Source of the DNA: Candidatus Uhrbacteria bacterium
GTDB lineage: Bacteria; Patescibacteriota; Patescibacteriia; 2-12-FULL-60-25
Assembly (NCBI GenBank): GCA_020854265.1
Contig: JADZFU010000003.1
Span: forward strand, 28,408-92,407
Reading direction: 5' to 3'
Length of the DNA: 64,000 nt
Position numbers and translations under genes: made by a program. The notes below the pieces were generated by a model. That model was not told where the DNA came from. It was given only the letters and a program-made list of their open reading frames with translations, and ran no database searches. How positions within the stretch are numbered: position 1 is the first letter of the stretch; each line of letters starts with the position of its first letter. Positions 8,091 to 47,109 of the stretch are shown in pieces.

Positions 8091-8120
8091 GACCTAAGTT
8101 GGGTAAGTTGGGGGAGAGTG

Positions 8121-33289: not shown

Positions 33290-33380
33290 ATTATGTCAGG
33301 ATTGAAATGGATGTTGGCCGCCATTTCGACAAAAAAAGACCCAAAACAGTGAAGAATGCATCTTCGCTGTTTTTGGCCGA

Positions 33381-33744: not shown

Positions 33745-33765
33745 CCGCTCCTTCCCTGATAGGTC

Positions 33766-33841
33766 CCGACGCGCATACTTCGCGTCGGACCTCCCCTCGG
33801 ACCGCCGACAATTTCGTCGGAAGTCTGATCCGGAGGTTCTC
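33766..33841 (+). repeat. Leader cassette B
   Basis: SL1 ccgacgcg/cgcgtcgg, aCCTCCcctcgg, SL2 ccgac-AATTTC-gtcgg, tccGGAGG (33832-33836), ATG 33842. Confidence 0.7.
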
Positions 33842-34192
33842 ATGAACATCACCCGCACCTTCGCAGCGTTCGCGCTCGTCATGATCCTGCTCTTCGGCCT
33901 TCGTACGTCCGAGAGCTTCGTGAGCGACGGCACGCCCATCGATCTCGGCACGATCTCGATCGTGCACGCCGAGAGCCCGGTCCAGGAGATGTACGAGCTC
34001 CGTACGCTCGACTTCACCATGGACCGCTGCGAGGAGCTCTCGAGCTTCACGCTCCGCGTCGACGAAGTCGACATTCCCGATGCTCGCTACCAAGTGGTCT
34101 GCGAAGAGGGGATGGCCATCGTCGTCTTCACCGAGCCGCTCGAGCTCGTCCGCGAGCCCGAAACCACTTCGCTCTACGGCTTCGCCAGCTAA
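33842..34192 (+). CDS. Small secreted or membrane-anchored hypothetical protein (116 aa)
   Basis: MNITRTFAAFALVMILLFGL. The N-terminus is paralogous to the 33427 gene. GGAGG lies 5 nt upstream. Confidence 0.55.
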   Translation: MNITRTFAAFALVMILLFGLRTSESFVSDGTPIDLGTISIVHAESPVQEMYELRTLDFTMDRCEELSSFTLRVDEVDIPDARYQVVCEEGMAIVVFTEPLELVREPETTSLYGFAS

Positions 34193-34209
34193 CCGCTCCT
34201 TCACGGGTC

Positions 34210-34294
34210 GCACATCCCCCTGATGTGCCTCTTCTTAGACTTCTGACCAAATCGCAATTTCGCGACGGTCGGAGGTCAAAGACGGAGGCAGGTA
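34210..34294 (+). repeat. Leader cassette C
   Basis: SL1 gcacat/atgtgc, CU-rich ctcttctt, SL2 ctgacc..tcgc-AATTTC-gcga..ggtcgg, GGAGG at 34271 and 34284, ATG 34295. Confidence 0.65.
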
Positions 34295-34606
34295 ATGCTA
34301 CTCAACTTCGTGACATTCGTCGTGTTCGTGGTCACCCCGATCCTCGGTTTCATGGTGGACCGCAAGGCTGGTCACCAGACCAAGCTTAGCCGGGAAGAGT
34401 ACCGGCATCAGTGTCGGGCGCACTTCCACCGTCGGTTCTACTGGGTACTCGGATACATGTCCGTGTCTCTCATCCCGCTCATCATACTGGGAGCGACGGA
34501 ACAGATTCCGGCAGAGTGGAGTACGCTCTGCAGCTTCAGCGGCCTCATCGTCGTCTGGCTCTGGTACCGCTTCTTTCGTTTCGAGCACTGGTACTACGGG
34601 TACTAG
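34295..34606 (+). CDS. Small integral membrane protein (103 aa)
   Basis: Three hydrophobic segments: LLNFVTFVVFVVTPILGF, WVLGYMSVSLIPLIILG and LCSFSGLIVVWLW. Confidence 0.55.
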   Translation: MLLNFVTFVVFVVTPILGFMVDRKAGHQTKLSREEYRHQCRAHFHRRFYWVLGYMSVSLIPLIILGATEQIPAEWSTLCSFSGLIVVWLWYRFFRFEHWYYGY

Positions 34607-34636
34607 ATGTTCGTCGCTAGCCCCTTCTCTCTGGAC

Positions 34637-34708
34637 CTCGTCGGTGAAATGACGAGACTCCTCTCGGACTCATCACAATTTCGTGGTGATTCCAAGGTGG
34701 AGGTTTGA
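34637..34708 (+). repeat. Leader cassette D
   Basis: SL1 ctcgtc/gacgag, aCTCCtctcgg, SL2 tcatcac-AATTTC-gtggtga, gtGGAGG (34699-34703), ATG 34709. Confidence 0.7.
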
Positions 34709-35971
34709 ATGGACATTCGACACATCGTGTTCTTGTTCACGCTCGTGTTCGTCGGATGCTCGAGCACCGGCCCCGTCCACATGACGGAGGTCGAGTGCCG
34801 GCTCAACTCCGACTGTTCCGTCGGCGAGTACTGCGACACCTTCGCCAGCCTCTGTGGCTGGGACTGCCGCAGCGACGACGAGTGCGCGCCCGGCATGTAC
34901 TGCGACGCGACCAACGGCCGCTGCCTCCGCGAGGAGACGCCGCCCCCGCCGCCAGACGAGAGCCCCGTGCTCGAGATCGTGGCCGGCGACCAGTCGGACC
35001 TCGTACTCGTGGGTGGCGCGAATGCCGCCGAGCTCTACCGTTTCACGCTTCGCAACAACGGCGATCGTCCGATCGAGGTCTCGAACGTCCACATCGGCGC
35101 GACGACGACCTCGGCCTACACGCTCCGCGTGCTCGGCCTCGCGATCATCCGTGACGAGCGGAGCATCGACACGGTCGCCGGACCGATCGACCTGACACCG
35201 GACGACGAGGTGTACGCATTCGGACAGCGATTCGAGTACGCCTTCATCGTTCCGCCGCATGGCGAGCTACCGTTGGCCGTTCGGTCCGATCTACTGGACG
35301 GTGAGCGCGCGGAGTTCGATCTCTTCGTCGGCTTCGCTGATGATCTGCTCGACGTCCTGCGCTACGCCGATACAGGCGAGGAAGTCGCGGATGAGGACGT
35401 CGTGGGAAACCACTACATCGTCCGTCACGTCATCGTTCGCCCCGACCACCCAGGCGCGCTCTCCATCGTCATGGAGGAAAGCGGTGGGAGGCAGCTGATC
35501 GATGCCGGCACGGAGTCGGCGATCTCGCTCTTCCGCATCCTCGTCGAGAACGACACGGACGAGACGGTCTACCTGAGCGACCTGCGCATCCGCGTGACGG
35601 CCGACGACGGCCGACCGTGGATGACCGACGGTGTTGTGGCGCTCGGCTCGATCGACGTCCACAGCAGCTACGATCGTTCGTGGCTCACGGCTCCTCCCGG
35701 AGCCAGCGGCTGCGGAGGTCTCGGTTGCACCTTCGTCTTCGACGGTACGGCCCTCCCTCCCGGCGAGTCGACGGTGCTCGAGGTCTACGTGCGCATCAAC
35801 ACGCCGGGCCGCACCCTCTTCATGGCGGTGGGCGAGAGCTTCACCATGTTCCCGGGATCCACTGATGCCGGCTCGATCTTCCACAGGATCGCAACCGCTT
35901 CCGGTGACCTTCTCCCAGCGGACCAGGTCGTCGGAAACCAGGCAGGCTTCTTCTACGTCGCCTCGCGCTGA
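34709..35971 (+). CDS. Lipoprotein, hypothetical (420 aa)
   Basis: Lipobox LVFVGC. A Cys-rich N-terminal stretch (ECRLNSDCSVGEYCDTFASLCGWDCRSDDECAPGMYCD) followed by beta-rich domains. Confidence 0.65.
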   Translation: MDIRHIVFLFTLVFVGCSSTGPVHMTEVECRLNSDCSVGEYCDTFASLCGWDCRSDDECAPGMYCDATNGRCLREETPPPPPDESPVLEIVAGDQSDLVLVGGANAAELYRFTLRNNGDRPIEVSNVHIGATTTSAYTLRVLGLAIIRDERSIDTVAGPIDLTPDDEVYAFGQRFEYAFIVPPHGELPLAVRSDLLDGERAEFDLFVGFADDLLDVLRYADTGEEVADEDVVGNHYIVRHVIVRPDHPGALSIVMEESGGRQLIDAGTESAISLFRILVENDTDETVYLSDLRIRVTADDGRPWMTDGVVALGSIDVHSSYDRSWLTAPPGASGCGGLGCTFVFDGTALPPGESTVLEVYVRINTPGRTLFMAVGESFTMFPGSTDAGSIFHRIATASGDLLPADQVVGNQAGFFYVASR

Positions 35972-36003
35972 ACGCACCTTCGCCCTCACGGGCATCTCTG
36001 GAA

Positions 36004-36085
36004 CCCCACGCAATGATTCGCTCTTGCGTGGGGACTCCTCTCCGCCTGCCGACAATTTCGTCGGCGGCCGAAGATGGAGGATAAG
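36004..36085 (+). repeat. Leader cassette E
   Basis: SL1 ccccacgcaa/ttgcgtgggg, aCTCCTCTCCGCC, SL2 gccgac-AATTTC-gtcggc, GGCCGAAGATGGAGG, ATG 36086. Confidence 0.75.
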
Positions 36086-36964
36086 ATGAACCTTTCCAAG
36101 ATCCTGTTCGTGCTGTTCGCGGCCTGCATTGGCGCGGCTGTGGCTCTCATCCAGGGCTGCGGCATGTCGCACCTCTCGGCACCCGATACTGGCACCCCGT
36201 CCTTCACGGACGATGCCGGCATCACCGCCGTTCCCGACGCGCCCATCGCCGCTCCCGACGCCGGCCCCTCGATCTACGAGTGGCCCGACAGCGGTCCCGC
36301 TCCGACTCCGGTCGACGCGGGTACGGACGCCTTCGTCGAGCCGGATGCATACGTTGCTCCGCTCGGGCGTTACGCCTTCTGCGATCCATGGACCGCGGAC
36401 ATCGATCATCGCGGCGGCTTTCGCGGCTGCTGCGCAACCGAGGGCGTCTTCCCGACGGCCGACAGCGTCTCGCCCGGCATGCTTGTGAAGGGGAGCGGTT
36501 CGCCGGTCTACTACATCTCCGAAGACGGAACACGCCACATCTTTGCGACATCGCAGTTCCTCACGAGCTGGTATCTCGACCCATCCCGCGACGTGCGGTT
36601 CGGTCAGGATGCATACGCCTGTAGTCTCGTGACGCAGATTCCGGACGAGCTCCTCGCCTCGATTCGTATCGGCGGAAACGTGCCGATGCGTCCCGGTGTC
36701 GTCACGGCCGGCATCCTCACGGATCCTCGGCGCTACGTCATCGATCACGGCAACGTGCTTCGACGAATCGGCGATCCGACCGTGACCTTCAATCTCGCTG
36801 AGCCGTGGCTGCGTGGCCGCGACATCCTGATCAGTGACGCATTTTTCGTCACGTTCTGTATCGGCACCGAGATCTGGAACTCCGACGAGTACGACGGCGA
36901 GAGTCTCTACCGAGAGGCCACCATCCAGTACGAGATCGACCATTACTGCGGTCGAGATCTATAG
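36086..36964 (+). CDS. Lipoprotein, hypothetical (292 aa)
   Basis: Start at MNLSKILF, 5 nt after GGAGG. The ATG at 36074 lies inside the SD. Lipobox LIQGC. DAG-rich linker containing IYEWPDSGP. Confidence 0.65.
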   Translation: MNLSKILFVLFAACIGAAVALIQGCGMSHLSAPDTGTPSFTDDAGITAVPDAPIAAPDAGPSIYEWPDSGPAPTPVDAGTDAFVEPDAYVAPLGRYAFCDPWTADIDHRGGFRGCCATEGVFPTADSVSPGMLVKGSGSPVYYISEDGTRHIFATSQFLTSWYLDPSRDVRFGQDAYACSLVTQIPDELLASIRIGGNVPMRPGVVTAGILTDPRRYVIDHGNVLRRIGDPTVTFNLAEPWLRGRDILISDAFFVTFCIGTEIWNSDEYDGESLYREATIQYEIDHYCGRDL

Positions 36965-36980
36965 TTCCTTCTTCCGAGGT

Positions 36981-37055
36981 CCTGTCCGCGTACTGCGCGA
37001 CAGGCCTCCTCTCCGCCTCCCGACATTTCGTCGGGGGCCGAAGCTGGAGGATTCC
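36981..37055 (+). repeat. Leader cassette F
   Basis: SL1 cctgtccgcg/gcgcgacagg, CCTCCTCTCCGCC, SL2 cccgac-ATTTC-gtcggg, GGCCGAAGCTGGAGG, ATG 37056. Confidence 0.75.
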
Positions 37056-37847
37056 ATGAACGAGTTCGTCGCCGCCGACCTGTTCCTCATCATCAACAAC
37101 GGCATCACGCAGTCCGATCTCGCCGCCATCCGCGACCACGTCCGCAAGGCCGTGCCGCGCATCCGCGAGCTGGGCAACTGGCCCGCGCACATCGACGCCG
37201 AGCGCTCGCTCGTCTCGCGCGTGCCGACCATGCTCGATCAGGCGCCCGGCTTCGACGCCGGCATCGCCTGCGCGCTGGATCTGATCCCGCGCGACAAGCA
37301 GAAGCTCGCCGCCACGCTCCACGCCGTCTACACCGAGGCGGCCGTCGAGCAGGTGCGCCGCGAGGTGGTCGAGATGGAGCCCGACTCCGAGACCTGCTGG
37401 TGGCTCGCTGCCTCTAGCGTCTGCCTCGAGGGCGCGGTTTACGCCGACGTCTTCGAGCGTCAGCTCAAGGCCTTCGACCACCTCATCAAGTCGCCGGTCT
37501 TGCGCCTCACCACCGCCATCAAGACCTTCGCCGAGATGGGTAAGAACTTCCGTCTCGTCGACGGCATCCCGTTCGTCATCAAGGACGGCGGCCTCCAGGG
37601 TGCGTACGTCTCCGGTCACGACTGGGGCGTCCAGTACGTCGAGGACTACGGCCTGTTCTTCATCGGCACCTTCCGCCCTTCCCTCGGTCTCGAGAGCTTC
37701 CCGTTCTCGGACCGCAAGGACGAGCAGAGCCGTCCGATGAGCGGTCCCGTCCACGGCTCCAAGCAGTTCGTGAAGGTCTCGAGCTTCAAGGAGCTCGAGG
37801 CCGCGACCCGCTTCGTCCGCGCCCACTTGGGTTCGCCCAAGAAGTAG
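37056..37847 (+). CDS. Hypothetical protein (263 aa), no signal peptide
   Basis: ATG 5 nt after GGAGG. Balanced composition. No domain recognised. Confidence 0.6.
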   Translation: MNEFVAADLFLIINNGITQSDLAAIRDHVRKAVPRIRELGNWPAHIDAERSLVSRVPTMLDQAPGFDAGIACALDLIPRDKQKLAATLHAVYTEAAVEQVRREVVEMEPDSETCWWLAASSVCLEGAVYADVFERQLKAFDHLIKSPVLRLTTAIKTFAEMGKNFRLVDGIPFVIKDGGLQGAYVSGHDWGVQYVEDYGLFFIGTFRPSLGLESFPFSDRKDEQSRPMSGPVHGSKQFVKVSSFKELEAATRFVRAHLGSPKK

Positions 37848-37862
37848 CCCTTTCTTCGGAGT

Positions 37863-37948
37863 CCGACGTTGTTCACTCAACGTCGGCTCTCCTCTCGGAC
37901 TCCTGACTCGGCAATTTCGCCGCGTCCGGAGTCTGATCTGGAGGATGA
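37863..37948 (+). repeat. Leader cassette G
   Basis: SL1 ccgacgttg/caacgtcgg, ctCTCCTCTCgg, SL2 cggc-AATTTC-gccg nested in ggactc/gagtc, ctGGAGG (37940-37944), ATG 37949. Confidence 0.7.
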
Positions 37949-38311
37949 ATGCAAGAGAAGAAGAATCTTCGTTGGGAGGACGGCAAGTCCGCTGCTTTCG
38001 ACGATGCCTTCGACTGCTTCCTGCTTGCCTGCGTCGCGCTCACCGTGACCGTCGGCATCTGCTTCGGATCCTATGTTGCCAACATGGCAACGGCGGGTCT
38101 CGAGCTCGAGCTCGCCGTGGGCATGACCGGTTCCGCCGGCCTCATCGTCAGCGGCTGGTTCGCCAAGCAGAGCTACAAGTCTTGGCGCCGCTACGCCGCC
38201 TGGGACGACCGCATCGAGATGCGCAAGCGTCTCGCGGCCACGGGCATCACCCGCGCCGACGACTCGCCCAAACTCGAACACAGCACAACCCTGATCCGCA
38301 AGAAGCTCTAA
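37949..38311 (+). CDS. Small membrane protein (120 aa)
   Basis: Two hydrophobic segments: FDCFLLACVALTVTVGICFG and AVGMTGSAGLIVSGWF. Confidence 0.55.
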   Translation: MQEKKNLRWEDGKSAAFDDAFDCFLLACVALTVTVGICFGSYVANMATAGLELELAVGMTGSAGLIVSGWFAKQSYKSWRRYAAWDDRIEMRKRLAATGITRADDSPKLEHSTTLIRKKL

Positions 38312-38322
38312 CCAGGAGAACC

Positions 38323-38793
38323 ATGGACCTCAAAACCCATTCCTACCTCCTCGCCATCTGCTTCGCGTTCAGCCTGCTGCCGGCTCCCGCCCTCGCCCAG
38401 TACGACGAGTACATCAGCCAGGCATCCGAGCTCTACGACATCCCCGAAGCCTTCATCCGTGCGGTCATCCGCGTGGAGAGCAACTTCAACCCGCGCTGCC
38501 GTTCGAGCGTCGGGGCCATGGGGCTCATGCAGCTGATGCCGGAAACGGCTCGTAGCATGGGAGTCACGCATCCCTTCGATCCGTACCAGAACATCATGGG
38601 CGGGACCCAGTTTCTGCGGATCCTCGCCAACCGCTACAGCGGCAACGAGTTTCTCGTGCTCGCGGCCTACAACGCAGGTGCAGGACGCGTCGATCTCTAC
38701 TTGAGCGGACGCCGTTCGCTCCCCGAGATCACGGTCACGCGCTACATCCCGCGGGTGCTGAGCCGCTTCCGCGAGTACTCGGCCCGCACCTAG
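38323..38793 (+). CDS. Lytic transglycosylase (SLT domain), secreted
   Basis: Signal peptide ...LLPAPALA. Catalytic IRVESNFNP, GAMGLMQLMPETA and AAYNAGAGRV. The gene starts 11 nt after the previous gene with its own AGGAGA. This is the only junction in the island without a cassette. Confidence 0.85.
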   Translation: MDLKTHSYLLAICFAFSLLPAPALAQYDEYISQASELYDIPEAFIRAVIRVESNFNPRCRSSVGAMGLMQLMPETARSMGVTHPFDPYQNIMGGTQFLRILANRYSGNEFLVLAAYNAGAGRVDLYLSGRRSLPEITVTRYIPRVLSRFREYSART

Positions 38794-38809
38794 TCCTTTC
38801 TTCTGAGGT

Positions 38810-38885
38810 CCTGACATGCACACTTCGTGTCAGGCCTCCACACCGAATGCTGACAATCCCGTCGGCAGTCGGTTCCGGAGGATCC
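38810..38885 (+). repeat. Leader cassette H
   Basis: SL1 cctgaca/tgtcagg, CCTCCacaccg, SL2 gctgac-AATCCC-gtcggc, tccGGAGG (38877-38881), ATG 38886. Confidence 0.7.
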
Positions 38886-39353
38886 ATGAAGAACCTGTCC
38901 CTGCTCCTTCTCACCGCCGTCGCGGCCATCGGCTGCGCCGGCCCCGTCGAGCCCGCCTCCGTCGAGGAGGCGCTCGTCACCTACACCGTGACCTTCGACG
39001 TCGGCGACATCGAGACCAACACCGTCCGCATCATGCTCTGCGACACCGCGACCGGCATGTGCGAGATCGGCGAGCCCGAGGGCTGCCGCTTCATCGACGA
39101 CGCGCCCGTCTCCGGCCACGCCTGCGACATCTCGGTCCCGGACGGCGACATGCTGGCCTTCAACATCCAGCTCGACAACGGCTTCGTCTGCGAGCTCGAC
39201 GACGACGAGTGCGCGCGCCTCGGATCCGTGCACGTCTTCCGCGACGGCGCTCCGGTCCCGCTCGAGCGCGACATCCACGGGGAGTTCTGCAACTTCCTGG
39301 TGATGCCCGACGCGATCGCCATCCCGCACGCCGCCGCGCCCGAAGGCATCTAG
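38886..39353 (+). CDS. Lipoprotein, hypothetical (155 aa)
   Basis: MKNLSLLLLTAVAAIGC lipobox. Cys-containing small domain. Confidence 0.6.
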   Translation: MKNLSLLLLTAVAAIGCAGPVEPASVEEALVTYTVTFDVGDIETNTVRIMLCDTATGMCEIGEPEGCRFIDDAPVSGHACDISVPDGDMLAFNIQLDNGFVCELDDDECARLGSVHVFRDGAPVPLERDIHGEFCNFLVMPDAIAIPHAAAPEGI

Positions 39354-39377
39354 CTCTTCCTCGTTCCTTCCCAGAGA

Positions 39378-39457
39378 CCTGACATGGTTCACTCTGTGTC
39401 AGGCCTCCTCTCCGCCTTGTCATCAATTTCGATGGCAGGCCGAAGCTGGAGGTTTAC
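39378..39457 (+). repeat. Leader cassette I
   Basis: SL1 cctgaca/tgtcagg, CCTCCTCTCCGCC, SL2 ttgtcatc-AATTTC-gatggcag, GGCCGAAGCTGGAGG, ATG 39458. Confidence 0.75.
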
Positions 39458-41797
39458 ATGTTCCTTCGACACTTCAGTTTGATGGTTCTGTTCGTCAGCG
39501 TGATCGGCTGCGGCACGTCGCACCTCGCGACCATGTCCGACTCCGGCACCCCGCCCGTCATGGGCGATGCCGGTCCGCCGGTCACCGGCCGCGACAGCGG
39601 CTTCTACGAGTGGCCCGACAGCGGCCCGGTCATCCCCGGCAGCGATGCCGGTACGGATGCGGGTACCGATGCCGGACCCATCGTCGAGACGGCGCTCCGC
39701 ATCGTCTTCGACGGTCCGGCCGACTCGACCTACCTCCGCGGTTCGCAGGATGTGGTCATGTACCACTTCACACTCACCGCCTACGAGGATCTCGAGATCC
39801 GCCGCATCCCGTTCACGCTCGAAGGCCTCACCGCCGCCGACCGCATCGTCGGTTCGGCAGGTACCGAGTACTTCCGTGATCTCAAGATCAAGGATGCCGA
39901 CACCGGCATGACCGTCATGGGGCCAATCAGCCTCGGCGACGGTTCATTCCCCGGCATCTTCGCCGATTCCTTCGTCATCCACGCAGGCGAGACCCGTCAC
40001 TTCATCGTGACCATGGATCTCGCCAACACGGAAGACGCAGCCAACGAGTTCTACGGCGACGGTAACAACCGCTACCGTGTGACCATCGGCCAAGACGGCC
40101 GCTTCTTCCAAGCGAGCGGCGTCCGCCGTATCGCCACGGGGGAGTTCATCACCCCCGAGGAGATCGAGAACAACGTGGTCATTCCCGGCAACGAGATGAC
40201 CATCGTCGACGCCGAGCTCGCGGTCGCCATGGCGGCGATCCCGTCGCTTACCATGGCGGTCAGCAACGAGCCGCTCATCCCGAGCGTCGGTCTCGTGTTC
40301 ACCGCCTCCGAGTTCTCCGATGTCCTGGTCCGCTCCGTGCGGCTCTCGGGTGTCGGGAATCTCGACGGCACCGACTCGGCTTCGGAGCTGAACGATGTCA
40401 TCACCGCGTGCGCCCTCTTCAATGGGGACGTGCAGGTGGGGCTGGCACAGACACCCGACGCCGTGACCGGCTCGATGCTCATCACGAACGTGAATGTGAC
40501 CGTCCCATCCGGTGCTTCCGTGACGCTCGTCGCCCGCTGTACCGCGGATTCCGTGGTCGCTGGCGAGTACGACATCTACACCATCGGCATCGCCGATGAC
40601 TCGCATGTCGTGGCCGAGCGCACCGACGGATCGTCCGTCTTCCCAGCTGTGGGCACGAGCCTTCTGAACAACGCGCTCATCTCGACCGGCAACTTCGTCA
40701 TCGTACACGATCATGGATTGGTCACGGTGCAGACCAACAGTCTCCGTCAGTCCACCATCCTCGTCGCCGGACCCGACGTCTGGCAGAACATGGCGCAGTT
40801 CCGCATCACGGCCCAGTACGAGCCCATCGAGCTCGAGATCGTACGCATCACCTCGCGCGGCGAGGCTGCCTCGTTCACCGAGGTAGCGGTTGCTGTCGAC
40901 GGTGCCATTCGTGGCAGCTGTATCCTGCCGGCAGGCACGGATCGTTCCTGCGACGCGCATCTCGATGACGTCTTCCGCGTCTCGCGTGACAGCGGTCGCG
41001 TCATGCAGCTCTGGGCACGCGTCTCGCATGTCGTCTCGTCGGCTTCGGTCGGCGGGGCAACCTCGGGCGTCGCTCGTTCCGGCAACCGCATCCGGCTCGG
41101 CATCGCAGCCGATGTCGAAAGCGGGGAGTGGGATCCGAGTTATGTCGGTATGCTCAACATGCGCTTCACTGGTGTCATGTCTGGCGACCGGCTCTTGGCC
41201 GACGGCCCCGAGCTCATCGGCAACGAGTTCGTCGTGCGGCGCACCAAGCCCACGGTCACGCGCCTGCCGCTCTCGACCGCCACCATCGCCAATGGCGTCG
41301 ATCAGGACCTGTACCGGTTCCAGATCTCCGCCAACAGCGCCGGCTCGGTCGGCCTCATGGGCTTCACCTTCATGGTGGATCGTCCGGCCGGTACGAGTAT
41401 CGGCCTCAGGATCCGTCGAGGAGCCACGGACATCCCCACCGTGAGTACCGGATATCCTGACGGAATGGTGACTCTCCAATTCCTCAGCGAAGAGGTGATC
41501 ACCGGTTCCGGCAACGTCTACACCGTGCACGGTGTCCTCGATGGTTTTGCCATCGGTGACGCGATCAGTATCACGCCGTATCGTGACTTCGCCTCCGCAA
41601 ATGCGGTGACCGGTTACGTCGCGAGCGACCGCCTGCTGCTCGAGACCGCCACGGGCTCCTTGTTCACCGGGCTTCTCTGGTCCGACATGTCGGAGATCCC
41701 GCACTCGTCCGCGACGCGGATGATGGGCGGCTCCTTCGACTGGACCGGCGACACCTTCGTCGAAGACCTGACACAGACCCAGGTCCTCACGCGCTAG
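39458..41797 (+). CDS. Large lipoprotein / surface protein (779 aa)
   Basis: Lipobox VSVIGC. Linker DAGPPV...FYEWPDSGP...DAGTDAGTDAGP. Repeated beta-rich modules. C-terminal motif LLWSDMSEIPHS...FDWTGD, shared with the 48190 gene. Confidence 0.7.
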   Translation: MFLRHFSLMVLFVSVIGCGTSHLATMSDSGTPPVMGDAGPPVTGRDSGFYEWPDSGPVIPGSDAGTDAGTDAGPIVETALRIVFDGPADSTYLRGSQDVVMYHFTLTAYEDLEIRRIPFTLEGLTAADRIVGSAGTEYFRDLKIKDADTGMTVMGPISLGDGSFPGIFADSFVIHAGETRHFIVTMDLANTEDAANEFYGDGNNRYRVTIGQDGRFFQASGVRRIATGEFITPEEIENNVVIPGNEMTIVDAELAVAMAAIPSLTMAVSNEPLIPSVGLVFTASEFSDVLVRSVRLSGVGNLDGTDSASELNDVITACALFNGDVQVGLAQTPDAVTGSMLITNVNVTVPSGASVTLVARCTADSVVAGEYDIYTIGIADDSHVVAERTDGSSVFPAVGTSLLNNALISTGNFVIVHDHGLVTVQTNSLRQSTILVAGPDVWQNMAQFRITAQYEPIELEIVRITSRGEAASFTEVAVAVDGAIRGSCILPAGTDRSCDAHLDDVFRVSRDSGRVMQLWARVSHVVSSASVGGATSGVARSGNRIRLGIAADVESGEWDPSYVGMLNMRFTGVMSGDRLLADGPELIGNEFVVRRTKPTVTRLPLSTATIANGVDQDLYRFQISANSAGSVGLMGFTFMVDRPAGTSIGLRIRRGATDIPTVSTGYPDGMVTLQFLSEEVITGSGNVYTVHGVLDGFAIGDAISITPYRDFASANAVTGYVASDRLLLETATGSLFTGLLWSDMSEIPHSSATRMMGGSFDWTGDTFVEDLTQTQVLTR

Positions 41798-41811
41798 TTC
41801 CTTCCCTGAGT

Positions 41812-41886
41812 CCTGACACGCACACTTTGTGTCAGGCCTCCTCTCCGCCTGCTGACATTTCGTCGGCGGCCGAAGCTGGAGGTTCC
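41812..41886 (+). repeat. Leader cassette J (archetype)
   Basis: SL1 cctgacac-gcacacttt-gtgtcagg, CCTCCTCTCCGCC, SL2 tgctgac-ATTTC-gtcggcg, GGCCGAAGCTGGAGG (SD 41878-41882), ATG 41887. Confidence 0.8.
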
Positions 41887-42333
41887 ATGTTCCTTCGATA
41901 CACGGTCTTCACGGTCCTGTCGCTCTTCCTTCTGGGCCTGTCCCAGACCGCACGAGCCCAGACGACCGAAGCCTGCTACACGGGTCCGCCCGGCACCGCA
42001 GGAGTCGGCGTCTGTCGTTCCGGCTCCCGATCTCTGGTCGACGGTCCTTGCGACGGCGAGGTGCTGCCCTGGATAGATGTCCCGGACAACGGGATCGACG
42101 AAGACTGCAGTGGTGCGGACCTCACGTTGCTGGCCTGCGGCGCTCCCTTCGAGGAAGAAGCGTCCTTCTCCCTCGCCAATCATCGGCCGGTGATCACGGG
42201 AGTGATCATACTGTCACTGGCTACGCTCACCGCTCTCATCGTTCTCATCTTGCGGAGACGGAAAACCATCCGTCAGCGCGATATCGTGACGGAGCGGATA
42301 CCGCGTTACACTCGTAACAAAGATGAAGTCTAA
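41887..42333 (+). CDS. Secreted Cys-rich protein with a C-terminal TM anchor (148 aa)
   Basis: Signal peptide MFLRYTVFTVLSLFLLGLSQTARA. Cys-rich GVGVCRSGSRSLVDGPCDGEVLPWIDVPDNGIDEDCSG. TM segment VITGVIILSLATLTALIVLIL, then RRRK. Confidence 0.6.
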   Translation: MFLRYTVFTVLSLFLLGLSQTARAQTTEACYTGPPGTAGVGVCRSGSRSLVDGPCDGEVLPWIDVPDNGIDEDCSGADLTLLACGAPFEEEASFSLANHRPVITGVIILSLATLTALIVLILRRRKTIRQRDIVTERIPRYTRNKDEV

Positions 42334-42340
42334 CCGAGCT

Positions 42341-42418
42341 CCGACGTTGTTCACTCAACGTCGGACCTCCTCTCCGCCTTGTCATCAATTTTGATGGCAG
42401 GCCGAAGCTGGAGGGTCG
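42341..42418 (+). repeat. Leader cassette K
   Basis: SL1 ccgacgttg/caacgtcgg, aCCTCCTCTCCGCC, SL2 ttgtcatc-AATTTT-gatggcag, GGCCGAAGCTGGAGG, ATG 42419. Confidence 0.75.
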
Positions 42419-43123
42419 ATGAACGACCGTACTTTGGAAAAGACGCGCATCATGGGTGCCAATGAGGTGCCCGTTCGTATCGAAGCGCCGCCGGAACATG
42501 ACAATTCTCCCCCTGCCTGGAGCCCCGTTCAGGCCGCCCTGCTTGGAGCGGCGGCAAGCATGGCTGTGGTGATTATTTGCGCAGTCGGTCCCATCATTGG
42601 TTTCCTCGCGCGTGAACACGTGCAGGACACCGGAGTCGCGAGCGTATCGGAGGATGTCGCCTCTACATCCGAGCGAACCGTCGCCGTGCTCGGCATCGAG
42701 TCGATTGATTTCGATGATCGGCTTGCCCGCGAGCTGACGCAGGAGCTTCGTCACGCAGTCGGCACGCATCGAGGTTGGCGCACGCATCCAACGCGGGCAA
42801 CAATCCTCGGACTTACAATCGCTTTCGAATGTGATCCACGTACCATGAGATGTCTTGAACGGATGGCGACCGAGCTAGGGACAGATCGATTGGTATTCGG
42901 GTACATGCACCGGGTAAATCCGTTGGATGGACGCGAACAAAACACATTCCGTTACGAGCTCTTCAGCTACGACGTGGAGGCAGGTGACATTGTCGCCATT
43001 ACCGAGGGGAATTTAGCGATAAGCGAATATTCCTTCGAAGAGCTTGCACAAGTTGCAGACGATTCAAGTGTGGTTCTTCTTGATGAAGTCGACGGCGAGG
43101 AAGCGCATGCATCCGACCCTTGA
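42419..43123 (+). CDS. Membrane-anchored hypothetical protein (234 aa)
   Basis: One TM segment (AALLGAAASMAVVIICAVGPIIGFL). The extracytoplasmic domain resembles the N-terminal domain of the 47110 gene (VAVLGIESIDFDD... versus YLGLDALEFDD...). Confidence 0.55.
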   Translation: MNDRTLEKTRIMGANEVPVRIEAPPEHDNSPPAWSPVQAALLGAAASMAVVIICAVGPIIGFLAREHVQDTGVASVSEDVASTSERTVAVLGIESIDFDDRLARELTQELRHAVGTHRGWRTHPTRATILGLTIAFECDPRTMRCLERMATELGTDRLVFGYMHRVNPLDGREQNTFRYELFSYDVEAGDIVAITEGNLAISEYSFEELAQVADDSSVVLLDEVDGEEAHASDP

Positions 43124-43226
43124 GCGCGTGCTCCGTATGGTCATCATCCTGATCATCGCGATCGTACTCCTCATCGATGTCCTGATCGCGCTCCATTCAA
43201 TCTTCAACTCGCTCCTTTCCCGATAA
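43107..43226 (+). CDS. Tiny hydrophobic peptide (39 aa), candidate
   Basis: MHPTLERVLRMVIILIIAIVLLIDVLIALHSIFNSLLSR*. GAGGAA lies 4 nt upstream. It overlaps the end of the 42419 gene in another frame. Cassette L begins right after its TAA, as cassettes do after real stop codons. Confidence 0.3.
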   Translation: MHPTLERVLRMVIILIIAIVLLIDVLIALHSIFNSLLSR

Positions 43227-43229
43227 GGT

Positions 43230-43304
43230 CCGACCTTGTTCACTCAACGTCGGACCTCCTCTCCGCCTGCTGACATTTCGTCGGCGGCCGAAGCTGGAGG
43301 TTCC
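43230..43304 (+). repeat. Leader cassette L
   Basis: SL1 ccgaccttg/caacgtcgg (1 mismatch), aCCTCCTCTCCGCC, SL2 tgctgac-ATTTC-gtcggcg, GGCCGAAGCTGGAGG, ATG 43305. 57 nt are identical to cassette J. Confidence 0.8.
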
Positions 43305-43823
43305 ATGTTCCATCCCGACCCCAACATTCGTTCCATCGAAGAGCGCAACATGAGCTGGGCGGCCAACGCCTGCTCGTTCATGCGCGAGCTCGATCAGGAG
43401 CTCCTCAAGTACGATCGTCTCGGCAAGTTCGCCTTCATGCACGATTCTCTCGACGATCTGCTTGCCCTGCGCGAGATCGATCTGCTCGTCGTGTGCGCCA
43501 TGACGGCAATCGTCGTCCGCGCCGAGGACGCGCTCTGCAAGTCATCCGAGCCGTACAAGGCCTCGGTCCGCTTCGGCGGATACGGCGCCCGTCCGCGCCT
43601 ATTGTTCGTGGATGTGGTAGGCATGTTCCTGCCGCTGGCCGAAGAGCCGGTCTTGGTCGGCGACATCAGCCGCCGTACGCACCTCACGAGCACGCAGTCG
43701 CTTCTGCTCCTGCGGGCCATGGCCTGCTACTTCGATCGCGAGCCGCCCGAGAGCTGGGGCCGTCTGGTCTTCGAACGGATCGAGAACGGCGCCATCAACG
43801 CCAAGCTCGCACCAATCGATTGA
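43305..43823 (+). CDS. Hypothetical protein (172 aa), no signal peptide
   Basis: ATG 4 nt after GGAGG. No domain recognised. Confidence 0.55.
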   Translation: MFHPDPNIRSIEERNMSWAANACSFMRELDQELLKYDRLGKFAFMHDSLDDLLALREIDLLVVCAMTAIVVRAEDALCKSSEPYKASVRFGGYGARPRLLFVDVVGMFLPLAEEPVLVGDISRRTHLTSTQSLLLLRAMACYFDREPPESWGRLVFERIENGAINAKLAPID

Positions 43824-43849
43824 GCCTGCTACGTTCATTCAGTCTGAGG

Positions 43850-43933
43850 CCGTCCGCAATCCTGCGCGACGGACCTCCTCTCCGCTCTCCGAACAGCATA
43901 GGGCTGCTCGGGGGCCGGATCTGGAGGGTTCGC
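43850..43933 (+). repeat. Leader cassette M (divergent stem-loop 2)
   Basis: SL1 ccgtccgc/gcgcgacgg, aCCTCCTCTCCGCtctcc, SL2 cgaacagc-ATAGGG-gctgctcg, gggGGCCGGATCTGGAGG, ATG 43934. Confidence 0.6.
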
Positions 43934-44974
43934 ATGTACCTTCGTCAATTCGTTCTCGGTCTATTGGTTCTACTCATCGTCACGGGCTGTGGCCCGTCGG
44001 ATCCACCGGATGAGATTCCGGATCTCACCGTCTCGCTTTCGGTGGGCACACCGAGCGGAAGCACGGTCCCGGCGAACGCCTCGAGCGTACGCATGGCCCT
44101 CTTCGTCTTCGAGGCGGGTAGGCGGTCCATCCAGCTCGAAGGGCTGCAGCTGCGTCACATCGGCGTCGGCTCCTTCGCGGATCTGCAGAACGTCTACCTC
44201 TACGACTTCTACACCGGCCTGCGGCTCACACCCGGCCGCGCGGTCGATGCGTCTACCGGCAATGTCCAGTTCTATCTGCCCATGGAAGCAGACCGAACCA
44301 TTCCGGCCGAGAGCAGTCGGACGTTCATGATCGTCGCCGACTTCGATGCCGCTTCGCTTGGAGGACAGCATGGGTTCGAGCTGGTAGCCGCCACGGCCAT
44401 CCACTCATCCGATGCGCCTGCCATCGAAGGCGAGTTCCCGCTCACCGCCAGTCTCTTCACGGTCGGTATGCCGGGGCCTCGCATCGATGTCCGCAGCGGA
44501 GCGGCGCCTGCCGACCCGTCCATCGGTTCAACCGATGTCGAGATCTCGAGCTTCACGCTCACCGCCTCAGATCGAGCGGTCGATCTCGCACACATCACGG
44601 TTTCCGAGACCGGTTCGATTGCAGCTGAAGACCTCACCGATCTTCGGCTCTATGTCGGCACCGAGCTCGTGTCTTCCGATATGGATGTAGACCCGCTCTA
44701 CAACCACATCGCATTCGGCTTCCCTGTGCCCTTCCGCCTCGAAGCCGATGCACCCATCGAATTCTCGGTACGCGCCACGGTCGGCGGTCCTCCGGGTCGC
44801 ATCATCCGTACGTGCATCGAGTATCCGGTCGATGTCTATGCAGTCGATGCCGAAACCGGTGGGGAAGCGGCCGTCTGCATCTCGCCACTCGCGGATGGGG
44901 GATGTTCGGCGCCCGGCCAAGGCTCCTTCAACGGAACCGTGCCGGGAACCTATATCTCGGTCACCACCCGTTAG
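43934..44974 (+). CDS. Lipoprotein, hypothetical (346 aa)
   Basis: MYLRQFVLGLLVLLIVTGC lipobox. Beta-rich modules similar in style to the 39458, 34709 and 48190 genes. Confidence 0.65.
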   Translation: MYLRQFVLGLLVLLIVTGCGPSDPPDEIPDLTVSLSVGTPSGSTVPANASSVRMALFVFEAGRRSIQLEGLQLRHIGVGSFADLQNVYLYDFYTGLRLTPGRAVDASTGNVQFYLPMEADRTIPAESSRTFMIVADFDAASLGGQHGFELVAATAIHSSDAPAIEGEFPLTASLFTVGMPGPRIDVRSGAAPADPSIGSTDVEISSFTLTASDRAVDLAHITVSETGSIAAEDLTDLRLYVGTELVSSDMDVDPLYNHIAFGFPVPFRLEADAPIEFSVRATVGGPPGRIIRTCIEYPVDVYAVDAETGGEAAVCISPLADGGCSAPGQGSFNGTVPGTYISVTTR

Positions 44975-44989
44975 TTCTTTCTCCCGAGT

Positions 44990-45066
44990 CCTGACACGCA
45001 CACTCCGTGTCAGGCCTCCTCTCCGCCTGCCCATCATGTCGATGGGCGGCCGAAGATGGAGGGAAC
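44990..45066 (+). repeat. Leader cassette N
   Basis: SL1 cctgacac-gcacactcc-gtgtcagg, CCTCCTCTCCGCC, SL2 tgcccatc-ATGTC-gatgggcg, GGCCGAAGATGGAGG, ATG 45067. Confidence 0.75.
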
Positions 45067-45936
45067 ATGTTCATTCGACTGTTCAAGAAGTTCTTCCTGC
45101 CGATCATGCTCGATCGCCGATACTTCATCGGCGGCGAGTTCATCGAGAACGCGGGCATGATCAACGCCGAACGCTTCCGCGATTTCTATCGCAGCATGCG
45201 GACGGGTCGCAACTTCACGTTGACGATCTTCCCGTATCTCGCGCTCGCCTTGCTCGTGTCGCTCGTGACTTGGTCGCTCCCGGTCGCTGCCGCCTGTTTC
45301 GGCGCCTTCACGGCCTTCCTGGTCGTCGACGGGGTGCATCTGCACGACCGTTGGGTGAACGCCAGAACCTGCGTGTCGAACGGGACCTACCGGGAACACG
45401 CCTCGACCCCGGGCAAGTTCTTTCTCTTGCCCGGAGCATGGCTCGTACCGCTAGTCGCCTGCGTGGCGCTCTTCCGCGCCGCCTACGTGTTCACCCCGGT
45501 CGCGCACGACGTCATCACGACCCAGGTGCCCGAGCCTCGCCCGAGCTCGCACTTCATCTCCTTCATCGCGACGGATCTCGACATCGAGCAAGAGCTCGCC
45601 GCCGAGATGATGAGCCTCGAGTTCAACGACGAGATGTGGGACCGGGGAAGGGGAGGCGACCACGCAAACAACCAGGCGATCGTCATCGCCATGGGGTGCC
45701 GCTACTTCGACCAAGCCTGCATCCGGAACGTCTCCGAGTACACGCAAGCCGATCACACCTACTTCGGCTTCGTGAACCGCATGTACACCTTCGAAGGCGA
45801 AGTCTTCGCGGTCGACATCTACCGCTTCGACCGCCGTTCCGGGGAGACCATCCACGAGAGCTACGACTGCGGAGGCAACATTCGCTCAGGTCAGTACTGC
45901 ATGGACCTCGCCGCCGAGTACTTCTCGCACCTTTGA
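45067..45936 (+). CDS. Integral membrane hypothetical protein (289 aa)
   Basis: MFIRLFKKFF... with hydrophobic segments (TIFPYLALALLVSLVTWSLPVAAACFGAFTAFLVV and FFLLPGAWLVPLVACVALF), then a soluble C-terminal domain. Confidence 0.55.
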   Translation: MFIRLFKKFFLPIMLDRRYFIGGEFIENAGMINAERFRDFYRSMRTGRNFTLTIFPYLALALLVSLVTWSLPVAAACFGAFTAFLVVDGVHLHDRWVNARTCVSNGTYREHASTPGKFFLLPGAWLVPLVACVALFRAAYVFTPVAHDVITTQVPEPRPSSHFISFIATDLDIEQELAAEMMSLEFNDEMWDRGRGGDHANNQAIVIAMGCRYFDQACIRNVSEYTQADHTYFGFVNRMYTFEGEVFAVDIYRFDRRSGETIHESYDCGGNIRSGQYCMDLAAEYFSHL

Positions 45937-45970
45937 TGTCATTCCCGCGAAAGCGGGAATCCACTCTAGA

Positions 45971-46048
45971 GCCGACGTTGTTCGCTCAACGTCGGCTCTC
46001 CTCTCCGCCTCGCGATCACGGTGATCGCGGGCCGAAGATGGAGGGCTA
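45971..46048 (+). repeat. Leader cassette O
   Basis: Preceded by an extra hairpin attcccgc-GAAA-gcgggaat (45941-45960). SL1 gccgacgttg/caacgtcggc, tCTCCTCTCCGCC, SL2 cgcgat-cacggtg-atcgcg, GGCCGAAGATGGAGG, ATG 46049. Confidence 0.75.
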
Positions 46049-47008
46049 ATGAAGCGCGGTAACAAGCACGTTCCCAAAAAGTCCGCCCCGACTCGATCTA
46101 CGTCATCTTGGTTCAACAAGGTGTTGGTGATTGTCGTCGGAGCACTCGCGATCATGTTCGCCTACGGCCATTTCCATGGACGTGGCGGCACGACTCGCTC
46201 TCGGCGTGCTCACGCCTCACCTCCCTCGCACCGTAGCCTGCCCGAGACTCCGAACGTGAACGAGATCCGCCGTGCGCAGTATGCGCTGCTTCGCTCAATC
46301 GTGGACGAGGACGCGGAAGGTCGTGAACTTCTCGAGTTCTTTGGCAGCTACGCACGCTACGGCATCCTGCTGGGAGACGGAATGATGACGGATATCCCAA
46401 CCGTCCCGGAGGGAATGCCCTCAGCGGAGGGTGACCCGATGAACTTCACGGTCGTCGTGTCCACCCAACGCCAGCGGATGGAGAACGGCATCAACTCTAT
46501 TTCTCCATGGGAGTTTCTTCACGAGCATGCTCTGCTCTTCGTTCCACCGAATTGGTCGGATCAGTCCGATCAAGTCGCTGGCGCCGTCTTTGCTCACGAG
46601 CTCAGACATGCCTTCGATCACGCACGCGGTATCCAGCCCGTACGCGCGACGCCGCGTGAAGTGATCGAGGGAGAGCTACGAGCCTATTCGCTCGAGATCA
46701 GACTTCTCAATCTCGCCAACGCGGGTCGAGTCGACTCGGTCCTCGGGTCAATCATCGCTTCTCGAACCGAGTGGACGGAAGATCCGGAAGCATGCGTCTT
46801 GATGGGCGACCTACGCGATGAAGAGAAGCAGGACTTCATCGATGCCTTCCACGGCATCCGCTCCGAAGACCTGTCGCCGCTCATCGTGCTTCTGCCAATC
46901 GGACTCAACCAAAGGTTGGCAGAATCCCACTCTTCCGATCTCGCGACAAGAGCAGAATGCTTGGAGCGATATCTGGAAGACCAGGCTCGTCGAGCTCGTA
47001 TGCTCTGA
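46049..47008 (+). CDS. Membrane-anchored protein with an HExxH motif (possible zinc metallopeptidase)
   Basis: N-terminal TM segment VLVIVVGALAIMFAY. FAHELRHAFDH contains HExxH. No further family assignment is possible by eye. Confidence 0.5.
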   Translation: MKRGNKHVPKKSAPTRSTSSWFNKVLVIVVGALAIMFAYGHFHGRGGTTRSRRAHASPPSHRSLPETPNVNEIRRAQYALLRSIVDEDAEGRELLEFFGSYARYGILLGDGMMTDIPTVPEGMPSAEGDPMNFTVVVSTQRQRMENGINSISPWEFLHEHALLFVPPNWSDQSDQVAGAVFAHELRHAFDHARGIQPVRATPREVIEGELRAYSLEIRLLNLANAGRVDSVLGSIIASRTEWTEDPEACVLMGDLRDEEKQDFIDAFHGIRSEDLSPLIVLLPIGLNQRLAESHSSDLATRAECLERYLEDQARRARML

Positions 47009-47026
47009 AGTGCCATTATCCGAAGT

Positions 47027-47109
47027 CCGATCCCGCGTTCACTCGCGGTCGATCGGACCTCCTCTCCGCCTCGCGATCACGGTGATCGCGGGCCGAAGAT
47101 GGAGGTATC
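47027..47109 (+). repeat. Leader cassette P
   Basis: SL1 ccgatc.ccgcg-ttcact-cgcgg..gatcgg, aCCTCCTCTCCGCC, SL2 cgcgat-cacggtg-atcgcg, GGCCGAAGATGGAGG, ATG 47110. 47 nt are identical to cassette O. Confidence 0.75.

Follow-up and report, generated by a model that had tools for sequence, protein, structure and literature searches.

A repeated structured cassette predicted to mask Shine–Dalgarno sequences throughout an Uhrbacteria gene array

The gene array and its intercistronic cassettes

The stretch analyzed here, 64,000 nucleotides from the metagenome-assembled genome of an uncultivated Candidatus Uhrbacteria bacterium (GenBank assembly GCA_020854265.1, contig JADZFU010000003.1, positions 28,408 to 92,407 of the forward strand; hereafter the window), has a backbone of about 53% GC that is interrupted by three blocks of about 63% GC, referred to below as blocks A, B and C. 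Block B holds a co-directional gene array whose spacers are occupied by copies of one composite cassette, which runs from the stop codon of one gene to the start codon of the next. Fifteen such spacers, each 78–114 nt long, lie between 33745 and 47109 and are bounded by the genes at 33427–33744 and 47110–48099, and the sole junction of the array without a cassette is 11 nt long (38312–38322). In all 15 spacers the parts follow the same order, namely the stop codon, a CU-rich tract, hairpin 1, CCUCC, hairpin 2, GGAGG and, 4–7 nt further on, the start codon. GGAGG is a strong Shine–Dalgarno (SD) sequence and CCUCC its anti-SD; the anti-SD, hairpin 2 and the SD together are termed module B. A covariance model of module B was built from 14 window copies and run on the window with filters off, and its matches are given with the features below, where L080, L081 and L083 are related loci introduced further on.

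3700–11000 (~3.7–11.0 kb), genes on the minus strand: block A, high GC
33400–50000 (33.4–50 kb), genes on the plus strand: block B, with the cassette array
51700–54100 (~51.7–54.1 kb): block C, high GC
33261..33289, plus strand: the only strong sigma-70-like promoter before the array (TTGACA, 17 nt, TATATT, with TG before the second hexamer; 11/12 matches)
33341..33402, plus strand: structured leader, its layout conserved in L080, L081 and L083
33341–33376, plus strand: terminator-like hairpin of the leader, with A-tract and U-tract
33381–33402, plus strand: hairpin-2-like stem-loop of the leader, CCCATGAC-AATTTC-GTCGTGGG, a partial copy without the CCUCC:GGAGG helix; model match 33378–33409, E ~2e-3
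33745..33841, plus strand: cassette 1, hairpin 2 loop AAUUUC; model match 33787–33844, 65.3 bits
34193..34294, plus strand: cassette 2, long hairpin-2 variant with CUCUUCUUAGAC; model match 34225–34297, 48.3 bits
34607..34708, plus strand: cassette 3, hairpin 1 loop GUGAAA; model match 34654–34711, 65.4 bits
35972..36085, plus strand: cassette 4; model match 36031–36088, 74.9 bits
36965..37055, plus strand: cassette 5, 5' of a conserved 263-aa gene; model match 37002–37058, 75.5 bits
37848..37948, plus strand: cassette 6; model match 37885–37951, 56.2 bits
38794..38885, plus strand: cassette 7, variant CCUCCACACCGAA ... GGUUCCGGAGG; model match 38832–38888, 58.5 bits
39354..39457, plus strand: cassette 8; model match 39401–39460, 73 bits
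41798..41886, plus strand: cassette 9, the exemplar, followed by the ATG at 41887; model match 41834–41889, 73.6 bits
41798–41849, plus strand: 5' half of cassette 9, comprising the CU tract (41798–41810), hairpin 1 (41812–41836) and CCTCCTCTCCGCC (41837–41849)
41851–41882, plus strand: 3' half of cassette 9, comprising hairpin 2 (41851–41867) and GGCCGAAGCTGGAGG (41868–41882)
42334..42418, plus strand: cassette 10, with a short CU tract; model match 42363–42421, 69.6 bits
43227..43304, plus strand: cassette 11 (43124–43304 if the tiny open reading frame 43107–43226 is not real); model match 43252–43307, 74 bits
43824..43933, plus strand: cassette 12, divergent hairpin 2; model match 43871–43936, 53.3 bits
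44975..45066, plus strand: cassette 13; model match 45012–45069, 70.5 bits
45937..46048, plus strand: cassette 14, in which a REP-like palindrome, ATTCCCGCGAAAGCGGGAAT (45941–45960), replaces the CU tract; model match 45994–46051, 61.3 bits
47009..47109, plus strand: cassette 15, the last of the array; model match 47055–47112, 65.4 bits
48105..48145, plus strand: terminator-like hairpin with a UCUUCUCUU tail, which ends the cassette-bearing unit
8014..8120, minus strand: full cassette copy in block A, between a 297-aa gene (9014–8121) and a 152-aa gene (8013–7555); model match 8011–8068(−), 67 bits
10731–10785, minus strand: weak copy in the leader of block A, found as a model match

An earlier sequence-only reading had proposed that the same composite element fills every spacer of the array except the 11-nt junction, and direct reading of the 15 spacers bore this out. 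The length range given there was about 85–115 nt instead of 78–114 nt, a few of its gene starts were off by one base, and its counts of the hairpin 2 loops are right provided that the AATTTC copies are taken to include the one in the leader. Its total of 15 full copies and one partial copy is right for the array, although it missed the full copy and the weak copy on the minus strand of block A. The AATTTC loop, described there as conserved, is so within the clade of this genome, whereas in other genomes the loop differs or an extra hairpin is nested there.

Exact matches to CCTCCTCTCCGCC occur seven times in the window, all on the plus strand and all inside spacers, and at up to three mismatches 66 matches were found against 31±5.7 in shuffles. 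Similarly, GGCCGAAGMTGGAGG occurs nine times exactly and 17 times at up to three mismatches, where 5.6±2.1 are expected. The covariance model returned 15 strong plus-strand matches (48–75 bits), the partial match in the leader, and one full and one weak copy on the minus strand; the minus-strand matches lying over true copies were weak shadows of 11–21 bits, and no copy was found in the 53% GC backbone. Contigs fetched because they encode homologues of the 263-aa protein yielded seven further loci with the same spacer architecture (L080, in a 1.08-Mb Uhrbacteria genome, L081, L083, L087, L088, L089 and L090). Together with the window, these loci gave 79 model matches at E<1e-4, all of them on the gene strand.

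The geometry of the cassette was assessed in 78 copies from the window and the related loci. The first nucleotides past the stop codon form a CYCCUUYC-type tract. Hairpin 1 is present in 77/78 spacers and ends 0–3 nt before CUCC (77/78); its stems vary, and its recurrent loops are UUCACU (~21 copies), GUGAAA (~11) and CACACUU (~11). Module B comprises a median of 19 bp (range 16–30), with a conserved internal loop between a lower SD helix of 5–7 bp and the inner helix. GGAGG stands 4–7 nt before the start codon in 75/78 copies. Hairpin 1 begins at least 12 nt past the stop codon in 73/78, with a mode of 14–16 nt, a distance that places it immediately outside the stretch of mRNA that a ribosome covers when its A site holds the stop codon.

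Searches of RNA families agree with the sequence-only reading, in which the element was not recognized as a named leader, riboswitch, RNA thermometer or REP family. Scanning the whole window with Rfam 15 at the gathering score returned RNase P and a tRNA only, and a scan of 33200–48300 on both strands gave zero matches even at E≤1; nor did a literature search find a description of the element. No match was found in phage records, and the two short matches in plasmid records are apparently incidental. A stricter, exact CCGCC-type pattern proved rare in JGI metagenomes, where it retrieved eight contigs, all matching the covariance model and several with more than one copy. A looser pattern, CCTCCTCTCCGCC-N12-32-GGCCGAAG, gave one IMG/VR match and 78 single matches in GTDB species representatives, none with the full GGCCGAAGNTGGAGG, and was discarded as chance.

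Covariation and strand of the fold

The fold was recovered both from alignments blind to structure and from the model-based alignment. When the window copies were aligned with MAFFT alone, RNAalifold returned a CCUCC:GGAGG outer helix closing a covarying inner stem. The same helix emerged when structure-blind MAFFT and RNAalifold were applied to 79 copies from eight loci, where 95.4% of 948 cells were paired and single pair columns took quite different forms (for example, UA 32, CG 24 and GC 16). Both results agree with the proposal of the sequence-only reading that the SD sits in a bulged helix capped by the second stem-loop. In the model-based alignment of the 79 copies, 95.1% of cells were paired, compared with 81.3±0.7% in shuffled alignments and 33–53% when the partner was slid, and 124 cells had changed on both sides, against 39±5.5 in shuffles; the suggestion that compensatory stem changes reflect selection on structure is supported.

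G·U cells outnumber A·C cells by 140 to 10 (14:1), and this excess identifies the folded strand as the mRNA sense strand, rather than its complement or a DNA cruciform. The CUCC:GGAG helix is paired in 79/79 copies, and C-to-U changes in it are retained as U·G in 18 of them. In addition, module B is more stable in the sense than in the antisense orientation in 59/79 copies (p=8e-4), with a mean z of −4.2 relative to shuffles and a median minimum free energy (MFE) of −26.7 kcal/mol. Apart from the CUCC/GGAG helix, the invariant positions are few and basal; copies and genomes differ in the sequence and length of both the hairpin 1 loop and the hairpin 2 apex. In the window and its closest relatives, module B is conserved about as much as coding DNA, which indicates that the structure is kept while the sequence drifts.

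Proposed Shine–Dalgarno masking and competing explanations

A simple promoter and terminator scan found the strong promoter at 33261–33289 before the array and, within the array, no convincing promoter or terminator until the hairpin at ~48105–48145. This pattern of signals suggests, as the simplest reading, a single transcript of ~14.8 kb. We propose that the cassette is a modular cis-acting element of this mRNA, in which hairpin 1 serves as insulator or stabilizer and module B masks the SD, and we put the probability of this reading slightly above even, at roughly 0.55. The cassette would join two units within one long polycistronic mRNA. The CU-rich tract and hairpin 1, starting just past the footprint of the ribosome on the stop codon, would form the 3' unit of the upstream cistron, where the likely role of hairpin 1 is to keep the two cistrons insulated and to protect 3' ends. 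Module B would be the 5' unit of the downstream cistron, its CUCC mimicking the 16S anti-SD and pairing with the GGAG of the strong SD to form the base of the 16–30 bp irregular hairpin. Such masking may bring initiation down to one shared level at every cistron, probably a controllable one.

Predicted ensembles are consistent with this proposal in most copies. The SD pairs mainly with the CUCC anti-SD (p>0.5) in 51/78 copies and with the CU tract in 9/78, the anti-SD pairs mainly with upstream bases in 16/78, and the predicted cost of freeing the SD falls in a narrow range, 5.9±1.5 kcal/mol. Just 5' of hairpin 1, a GAG(G) can form at least three consecutive base pairs with CUC(C) in 39/78 copies, against 7.8% of controls, which makes two alternative states possible. 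The anti-SD could thus be drawn to this GAG(G) in about half of the copies, and the element might toggle between a masked and an open form.

The use of SD sequences itself differs between the array and its surroundings. Within the 17 nt from −20 to −4, GGAG or GAGG precedes 95/109 array genes and 15/61 flanking genes, which makes SD use, and with it any SD masking, a property of the high-GC arrays. That these arrays are rich in SD sequences and the backbone poor suggests, from sequence, two translation-initiation regimes within one small genome. For reference, the starts read for SD use included those at 508, 2781, 15012, 20822, 27547, 30200 and 49999 in the backbone and those in the flanks of L080, L081, L083, L089 and L090.

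Several observations weigh against SD masking as the function of the cassette. The outer helix is invariant and cannot itself show covariation. Over whole spacers, MFE does not differ between sense and antisense (p=0.29), and the SD is mostly paired in shuffled spacers too (0.80, compared with 0.89 in native ones), which means that part of the masking is an effect of composition; these two weak measures were replaced by measures restricted to module B and to specific partners. Because the apical loops differ from genome to genome, a single universal binding partner is less likely, and no trigger, whether a ligand, protein, small RNA or nuclease, was identified. The GAG(G) would be covered by a terminating ribosome, with no obvious positive coupling to the next cistron. 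Finally, the first gene of the array has neither a cassette nor a clear SD, and the 583-aa gene, which lies 3' of the terminator-like hairpin 48105–48145 beyond an AT-rich stretch, lacks a cassette and yet has a plain GGAGG SD.

Among the alternatives, endonucleolytic processing by RNase III, as in phage T7, is the strongest, even though we consider it unlikely. The ~19 bp irregular helix, with its conserved internal loop, would be cut so as to yield monocistronic mRNAs from the 15-kb transcript; the upstream mRNA would keep hairpin 1, and possibly hairpin 2 as well, as a stabilizer at its 3' end, and the SD of the next cistron would be freed by the cut. T7 RNase III sites and the RNase III-dependent release of SD sequences in lambda N and adhE offer precedents. 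The length of module B and its conserved internal loop speak for this reading, as does the gap of 0–1 nt between hairpin 1 and module B in most copies, which could allow coaxial stacking. In some comparisons between loci, the downstream gene retains its module B and the upstream gene its hairpin 1, which is how independent 5' and 3' untranslated region (UTR) units would behave. The lower helix of 5–7 bp is, however, short for this role, few sequence determinants can be used in silico, and no nuclease gene was identified in the array, where almost all proteins are Pfam-negative and the 263-aa protein gives weak DHH/DHHA1-like fold matches (E at least 0.09). Processing is also compatible with SD masking and may be its trigger rather than an alternative to it.

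The evolution of the arrays bears on a different possibility, that the cassettes act mainly as portable homology junctions in DNA, integron-like in effect, through which genes for envelope proteins are shuffled, gained and lost by homologous recombination or gene conversion, the RNA fold being secondary. Gene families are gained, lost and reordered between genomes, even close relatives, while the flanks remain constant; the 263-aa gene, for example, precedes a trio of 120-aa, SLT and 155-aa genes in the window and follows it in L087. The nearest relative of a given module B lies upstream of an unrelated gene in 67/79 cases, 32 of them within the same genome; the modules are thus exchanged or homogenized. 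One identical stretch of module B, present in L087 as well, precedes different genes in the window, L081 and L083. The long hairpin-2 variant of cassette 2 is a module type shared with L080, L081, L083, L089 and L090. The module closest to that of cassette 6 (0.96) belongs to the L087 cassette upstream of the same gene family, and cassette 7 shares a nearly identical module B (0.95) with an L087 cassette upstream of the same gene family, hairpin 1 having been replaced. The GC content of ~62% in the array against 52–57% in the flanks (L080) would also fit GC-biased gene conversion. Nevertheless, homology junctions leave unexplained the fixed distances to stop and start codons, the invariant CUCC/GGAG, the compensatory changes and the 14:1 ratio of G·U to A·C. 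Among the proteins scanned from the array and the other high-GC blocks there was no match to a recombinase or integrase family, and no attC core sites (RYYYAAC/GTTRRRY) were seen on reading the spacers by eye. As the main role of the cassettes this seems quite improbable, although they plausibly serve as homology junctions as well.

Two further readings fit poorly. In one, hairpin 1 with its pyrimidine tail (CCUCCUCUCC or CUCUUCUU) would be a leaky intrinsic terminator or pause site and hairpin 2 the site of an antitermination factor, resulting in a gradient of transcripts along the array. The terminator-like hairpins at the array ends in the window do have tails of mixed U and C (for example, UCUUCUCUU), the scan marked 34210–34228 with CTCTTCTTAG as terminator-like, and the leader itself consists of a terminator-like hairpin followed by a hairpin-2-like element. 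Most cassette tails are nevertheless C-rich, with 3–4 U in 10 nt, and would make poor terminators; 15 of these in series would silence the distal genes, the hairpin 2 loops vary between genomes, and the invariant pairing to the SD would find no explanation, all of which makes leaky termination very unlikely. Least credible is that the cassettes are selfish repeats of the repetitive extragenic palindromic (REP) or bacterial interspersed mosaic element (BIME) kind, or miniature inverted-repeat transposable elements, which invaded intergenic DNA and have no function in the operon. That many similar copies occur in one genome would suit this idea, and REP-like palindromes do share some spacers (45941–45960 in the window, and palindromes followed by CCCCTAC in L090 and L085). 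It is countered by the gene orientation of 79/79 strong copies, by the lack of any copy in the 53% GC backbone of the window, by the anchoring of the ends to stop and start codons with an SD supplied by every copy, and by an architecture that persists across related loci while sequences diverge with compensatory changes. In addition, no terminal inverted repeats or target duplications were noticed on reading the spacers.

A bolder combination, which we regard as speculative and unlikely to hold in full, would make the array an operon-wide three-part translational switch. The GAG(G) at the edge of the terminating-ribosome footprint would act as an anti-anti-SD alongside the anti-SD CCUCC and the SD GGAGG, and initiation would depend on the translation history of the preceding cistron; a separate SD-dependent regime would serve fast-evolving envelope-protein arrays, and the same 3' UTR and 5' UTR units would double as gene-shuffling junctions within and between genomes.

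Comparison with known systems places the cassette, by its predicted structure, among the generic SD-sequestering cis-regulatory hairpins. As in the intercistronic RNase III hairpins of T7 (R0.3, R1.1 and others), lambda N and Escherichia coli adhE, irregular hairpins with internal loops recur between the cistrons of what is probably one long transcript, a hairpin could remain on the upstream 3' end, and structure around the SD would control translation downstream. Signals of the T7 type are irregular hairpins of some two helical turns that have an internal loop and are situated between cistrons. The cassette differs from the T7 type in its short lower helix, one strand of which is an explicit mimic of the anti-SD, in having a second hairpin and a CU tract as fixed parts, and in belonging to a chromosomal operon of a candidate phyla radiation (CPR) bacterium rather than a phage, consistent with the lack of matches in phage records; cleavage is established for the T7 type, whereas the cassette is described from sequence. 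REP/BIME, ERIC, BOX and Correia elements are likewise multi-copy, transcribed, stem-loop-forming repeats found in operons, and they can stabilize upstream mRNA or affect translation near stop codons. However, REPs are dispersed over the genome in both orientations, carry a conserved head tetranucleotide, have a REP-associated tyrosine transposase as partner and supply no SD, whereas the cassette keeps one orientation, occurs in just two arrays of the window and has its ends fixed relative to stop and start codons. Neither hairpin has the conserved GTAG head, and no transposase family match was found among the proteins scanned in the array and the other high-GC blocks, the genomes not having been searched as a whole.

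RNA thermometers (ROSE, fourU), ribosomal-protein leaders and riboswitch expression platforms share with the cassette the pairing of the SD by upstream pyrimidines, which would have to open before the 30S subunit could bind. They are single-copy per operon, usually have weaker helices and possess defined sensors; the cassette, in contrast, is repeated 15 times in one operon, reaches about −27 kcal/mol and has neither a conserved sensor domain nor an Rfam match. Its anti-SD is CCUCC, not the UUUU or U(U/C)GCU found in the weak, short hairpins of fourU and ROSE elements, which contain mismatches and melt at physiological temperatures, and its variable hairpin 2 apex and hairpin 1 loop leave no conserved aptamer core. 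Integron attC arrays resemble the present array in their co-directional, mostly unrelated and apparently promoterless genes, in the imperfect palindromes of 60–140 nt between these, in the retention of structure while sequence varies, and in variable gene content. The two differ in that attC folds as bottom-strand single-stranded DNA and has extrahelical bases for strand choice, while the cassette folds on the mRNA sense strand with many G·U pairs, carries an SD and is placed relative to codons. No R''(RYYYAAC)/R'(GTTRRRY) cores were seen in the 15 spacers, which were read by eye and not by a formal pattern scan, and the array proteins scanned gave no match to a recombinase family, where an integron would have an adjacent intI tyrosine recombinase with attI and Pc.

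Synthetic tunable intergenic regions (TIGRs) and plastid intercistronic expression elements also place two hairpins at a cistron junction and sequester the ribosome-binding site to tune relative expression and processing in an operon. These are engineered or dependent on pentatricopeptide repeat proteins, whereas the cassette is a natural bacterial element with its own conserved sequence. In the vsp, vlp and vsa families of Mycoplasma, clusters of surface lipoproteins share a conserved 5' UTR and the first signal-peptide codons while the mature proteins are unrelated, and the array is similar in that its genes often begin with MF(L/I)R. There, however, the conserved region serves promoters or site-specific inversion (phase variation), as opposed to one promoter, a co-directional array, selection on an RNA fold and no recombinase match among the proteins scanned. 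Mycobacterial interspersed repetitive units, which contain a small open reading frame coupled to the flanking genes by overlapping start and stop codons, offer no parallel, as the spacers of the array begin after the stop codon and hold no bridging open reading frame; their sole internal ATG (in GATGGAGG) is polymorphic (A/C) and its frame varies. Relative to Rfam and the literature searched, the cassette would thus represent a new family of composite SD-masking elements that lie between cistrons and recur operon-wide, seen so far in a single Uhrbacteria clade. Three other candidates were considered and rejected: an RNase P-type substrate (hairpin with an RCCA-like tail), the tail not being universal; a promoter in each spacer, as the spacers lack both the room and a −10 element; and a T-loop formed by hairpin 1, whose loop does not fit.

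To our knowledge, little work has been done on gene regulation in CPR bacteria. Should the masking prove functional, one RNA module used over and over would provide the post-transcriptional wiring of an entire 15-gene operon, as a natural counterpart of the engineered TIGRs. The module also provides a handle for finding, in metagenomes, fast-evolving arrays of mostly Pfam-negative and probably surface-exposed proteins, which may mediate contact between episymbiont and host. In addition, the pattern of module shuffling bears on how such loci could diversify without a dedicated recombinase, none having been matched among the proteins scanned.

Related loci, array genes and associated signals

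In the related loci, pfkB lies upstream of the array in L080, L081, L083, L089 and L090 and a DUF2207 gene downstream in L080, L081, L083 and L090, whereas L087 and L088 are short contigs without visible flanks; the genes called upstream are pfkB, SBF and a 2-hydroxyacid dehydrogenase. pfkB is followed first by an AT-rich promoter, read in L080, L081 and L083 as the TTGACAAAA...TGTGCTATATTA type, and then by a structured leader. This promoter region is conserved in L080 and L083 and more diverged in L081. The block B locus is no obvious recent island, since pfkB and DUF2207 flank it in several related Uhrbacteria loci, and the candidate causes of its raised GC include biased gene conversion and an old foreign origin. 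More distant homologues of the 263-aa protein are either solitary (L100) or part of short arrays whose spacers repeat a different two-hairpin sequence (L085, L099). In L099, the consecutive spacers at 7864–8000 and 8721–8840 are alike by eye over ~80 nt of a different two-hairpin sequence, and repeated structured spacers may be a general trait of arrays with genes of this family, here called family B.

The window backbone contains the RNase P RNA (54159–54567), a tRNA-Ala gene and two large open reading frames that we take to be rpoB and rpoC. Of the 18 array proteins scanned, the SLT lytic transglycosylase (38323–38793) alone had a Pfam match above threshold; the other 17 had none beyond weak sub-threshold ones, and the proteins of blocks A and C likewise gave no Pfam match. 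Judging from the translations, most of the other block B products begin with a signal peptide, lipobox or membrane helix. The family B protein (37056–37847; 263 aa, annotated as 'hypothetical protein IT407_01225') has 293 homologues and no Pfam domain, and it is the one cytoplasmic-looking protein present in every array fetched. Its AlphaFold model is confident (predicted local distance difference test score, pLDDT, 95.7); comparison of the model with PDB folds gave nothing significant (best E 0.09, to weak DHH/DHHA1-like folds), and a PDB sequence-profile search returned nothing useful. The modeled structure may represent a new fold.

Both high-GC arrays have similar promoters, TTGACAAA...TGTGCTATA, and upstream of these lie operator-like palindromes, TTAGCCAAA...TTTGGCTAA or GGCTAATATTAGCC (at 33211–33242 (+) and ~11120–11225 (−) of the window). 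Such palindromes are also present upstream of the array promoter in L080, L081 and L083, and the two arrays may share a regulator. In the leader hairpin at 33341–33376, a 3' U-tract pairs with a 5' A-tract in the manner of a terminator or attenuator, and a counterpart stands at the same place in L080, L081 and L083.

Within the spacers, recurrent loops are mutually complementary, UUCAC with GUGAA and GAAAU with AUUUC, and both types occur in each genome (hairpin 1 at 34637–34650, GUGAAA, and at 37863–37886, UUCACU; AAUUUC in hairpin 2); they could form loop–loop kissing contacts or derive from hairpins of opposite orientation. The REP-like palindrome at 45941–45960 of the window, of the form ATTCCCGCGAA(A/G)GCGGGAAT, is separate from the cassette and is also inserted in some spacers of L080, L081 and L088; another palindrome, GGGCGCAT...ATGCGCCCCTAC, sits in spacers of L090 and L085. 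The tiny open reading frame at 43107–43226 would encode a hydrophobic product of 39 aa, overlaps the 3' end of the gene at 42419–43123 and reads through the CU tract; its stop codon lies 1–3 nt before hairpin 1, unlike almost all other copies, and it may be a real gene or a remnant.

Similarity among 13 window copies extends ~12 nt into the coding region (ATGTTCMTTCGN, encoding MF(L/I)R; for example, at 39458, 41887, 45067 and 47110), and the shared first codons could reflect a constraint on the n-region of signal peptides or be part of the exchanged module. Finally, public gene calls often start on the ATG inside GAAGATGGAGG, that is, within the SD (L083 at 5384, 9565 and 10001; L081 at 10928; L090 at 9713). 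The N-termini of families called in this way are probably mis-annotated, with the true start a few bases downstream.

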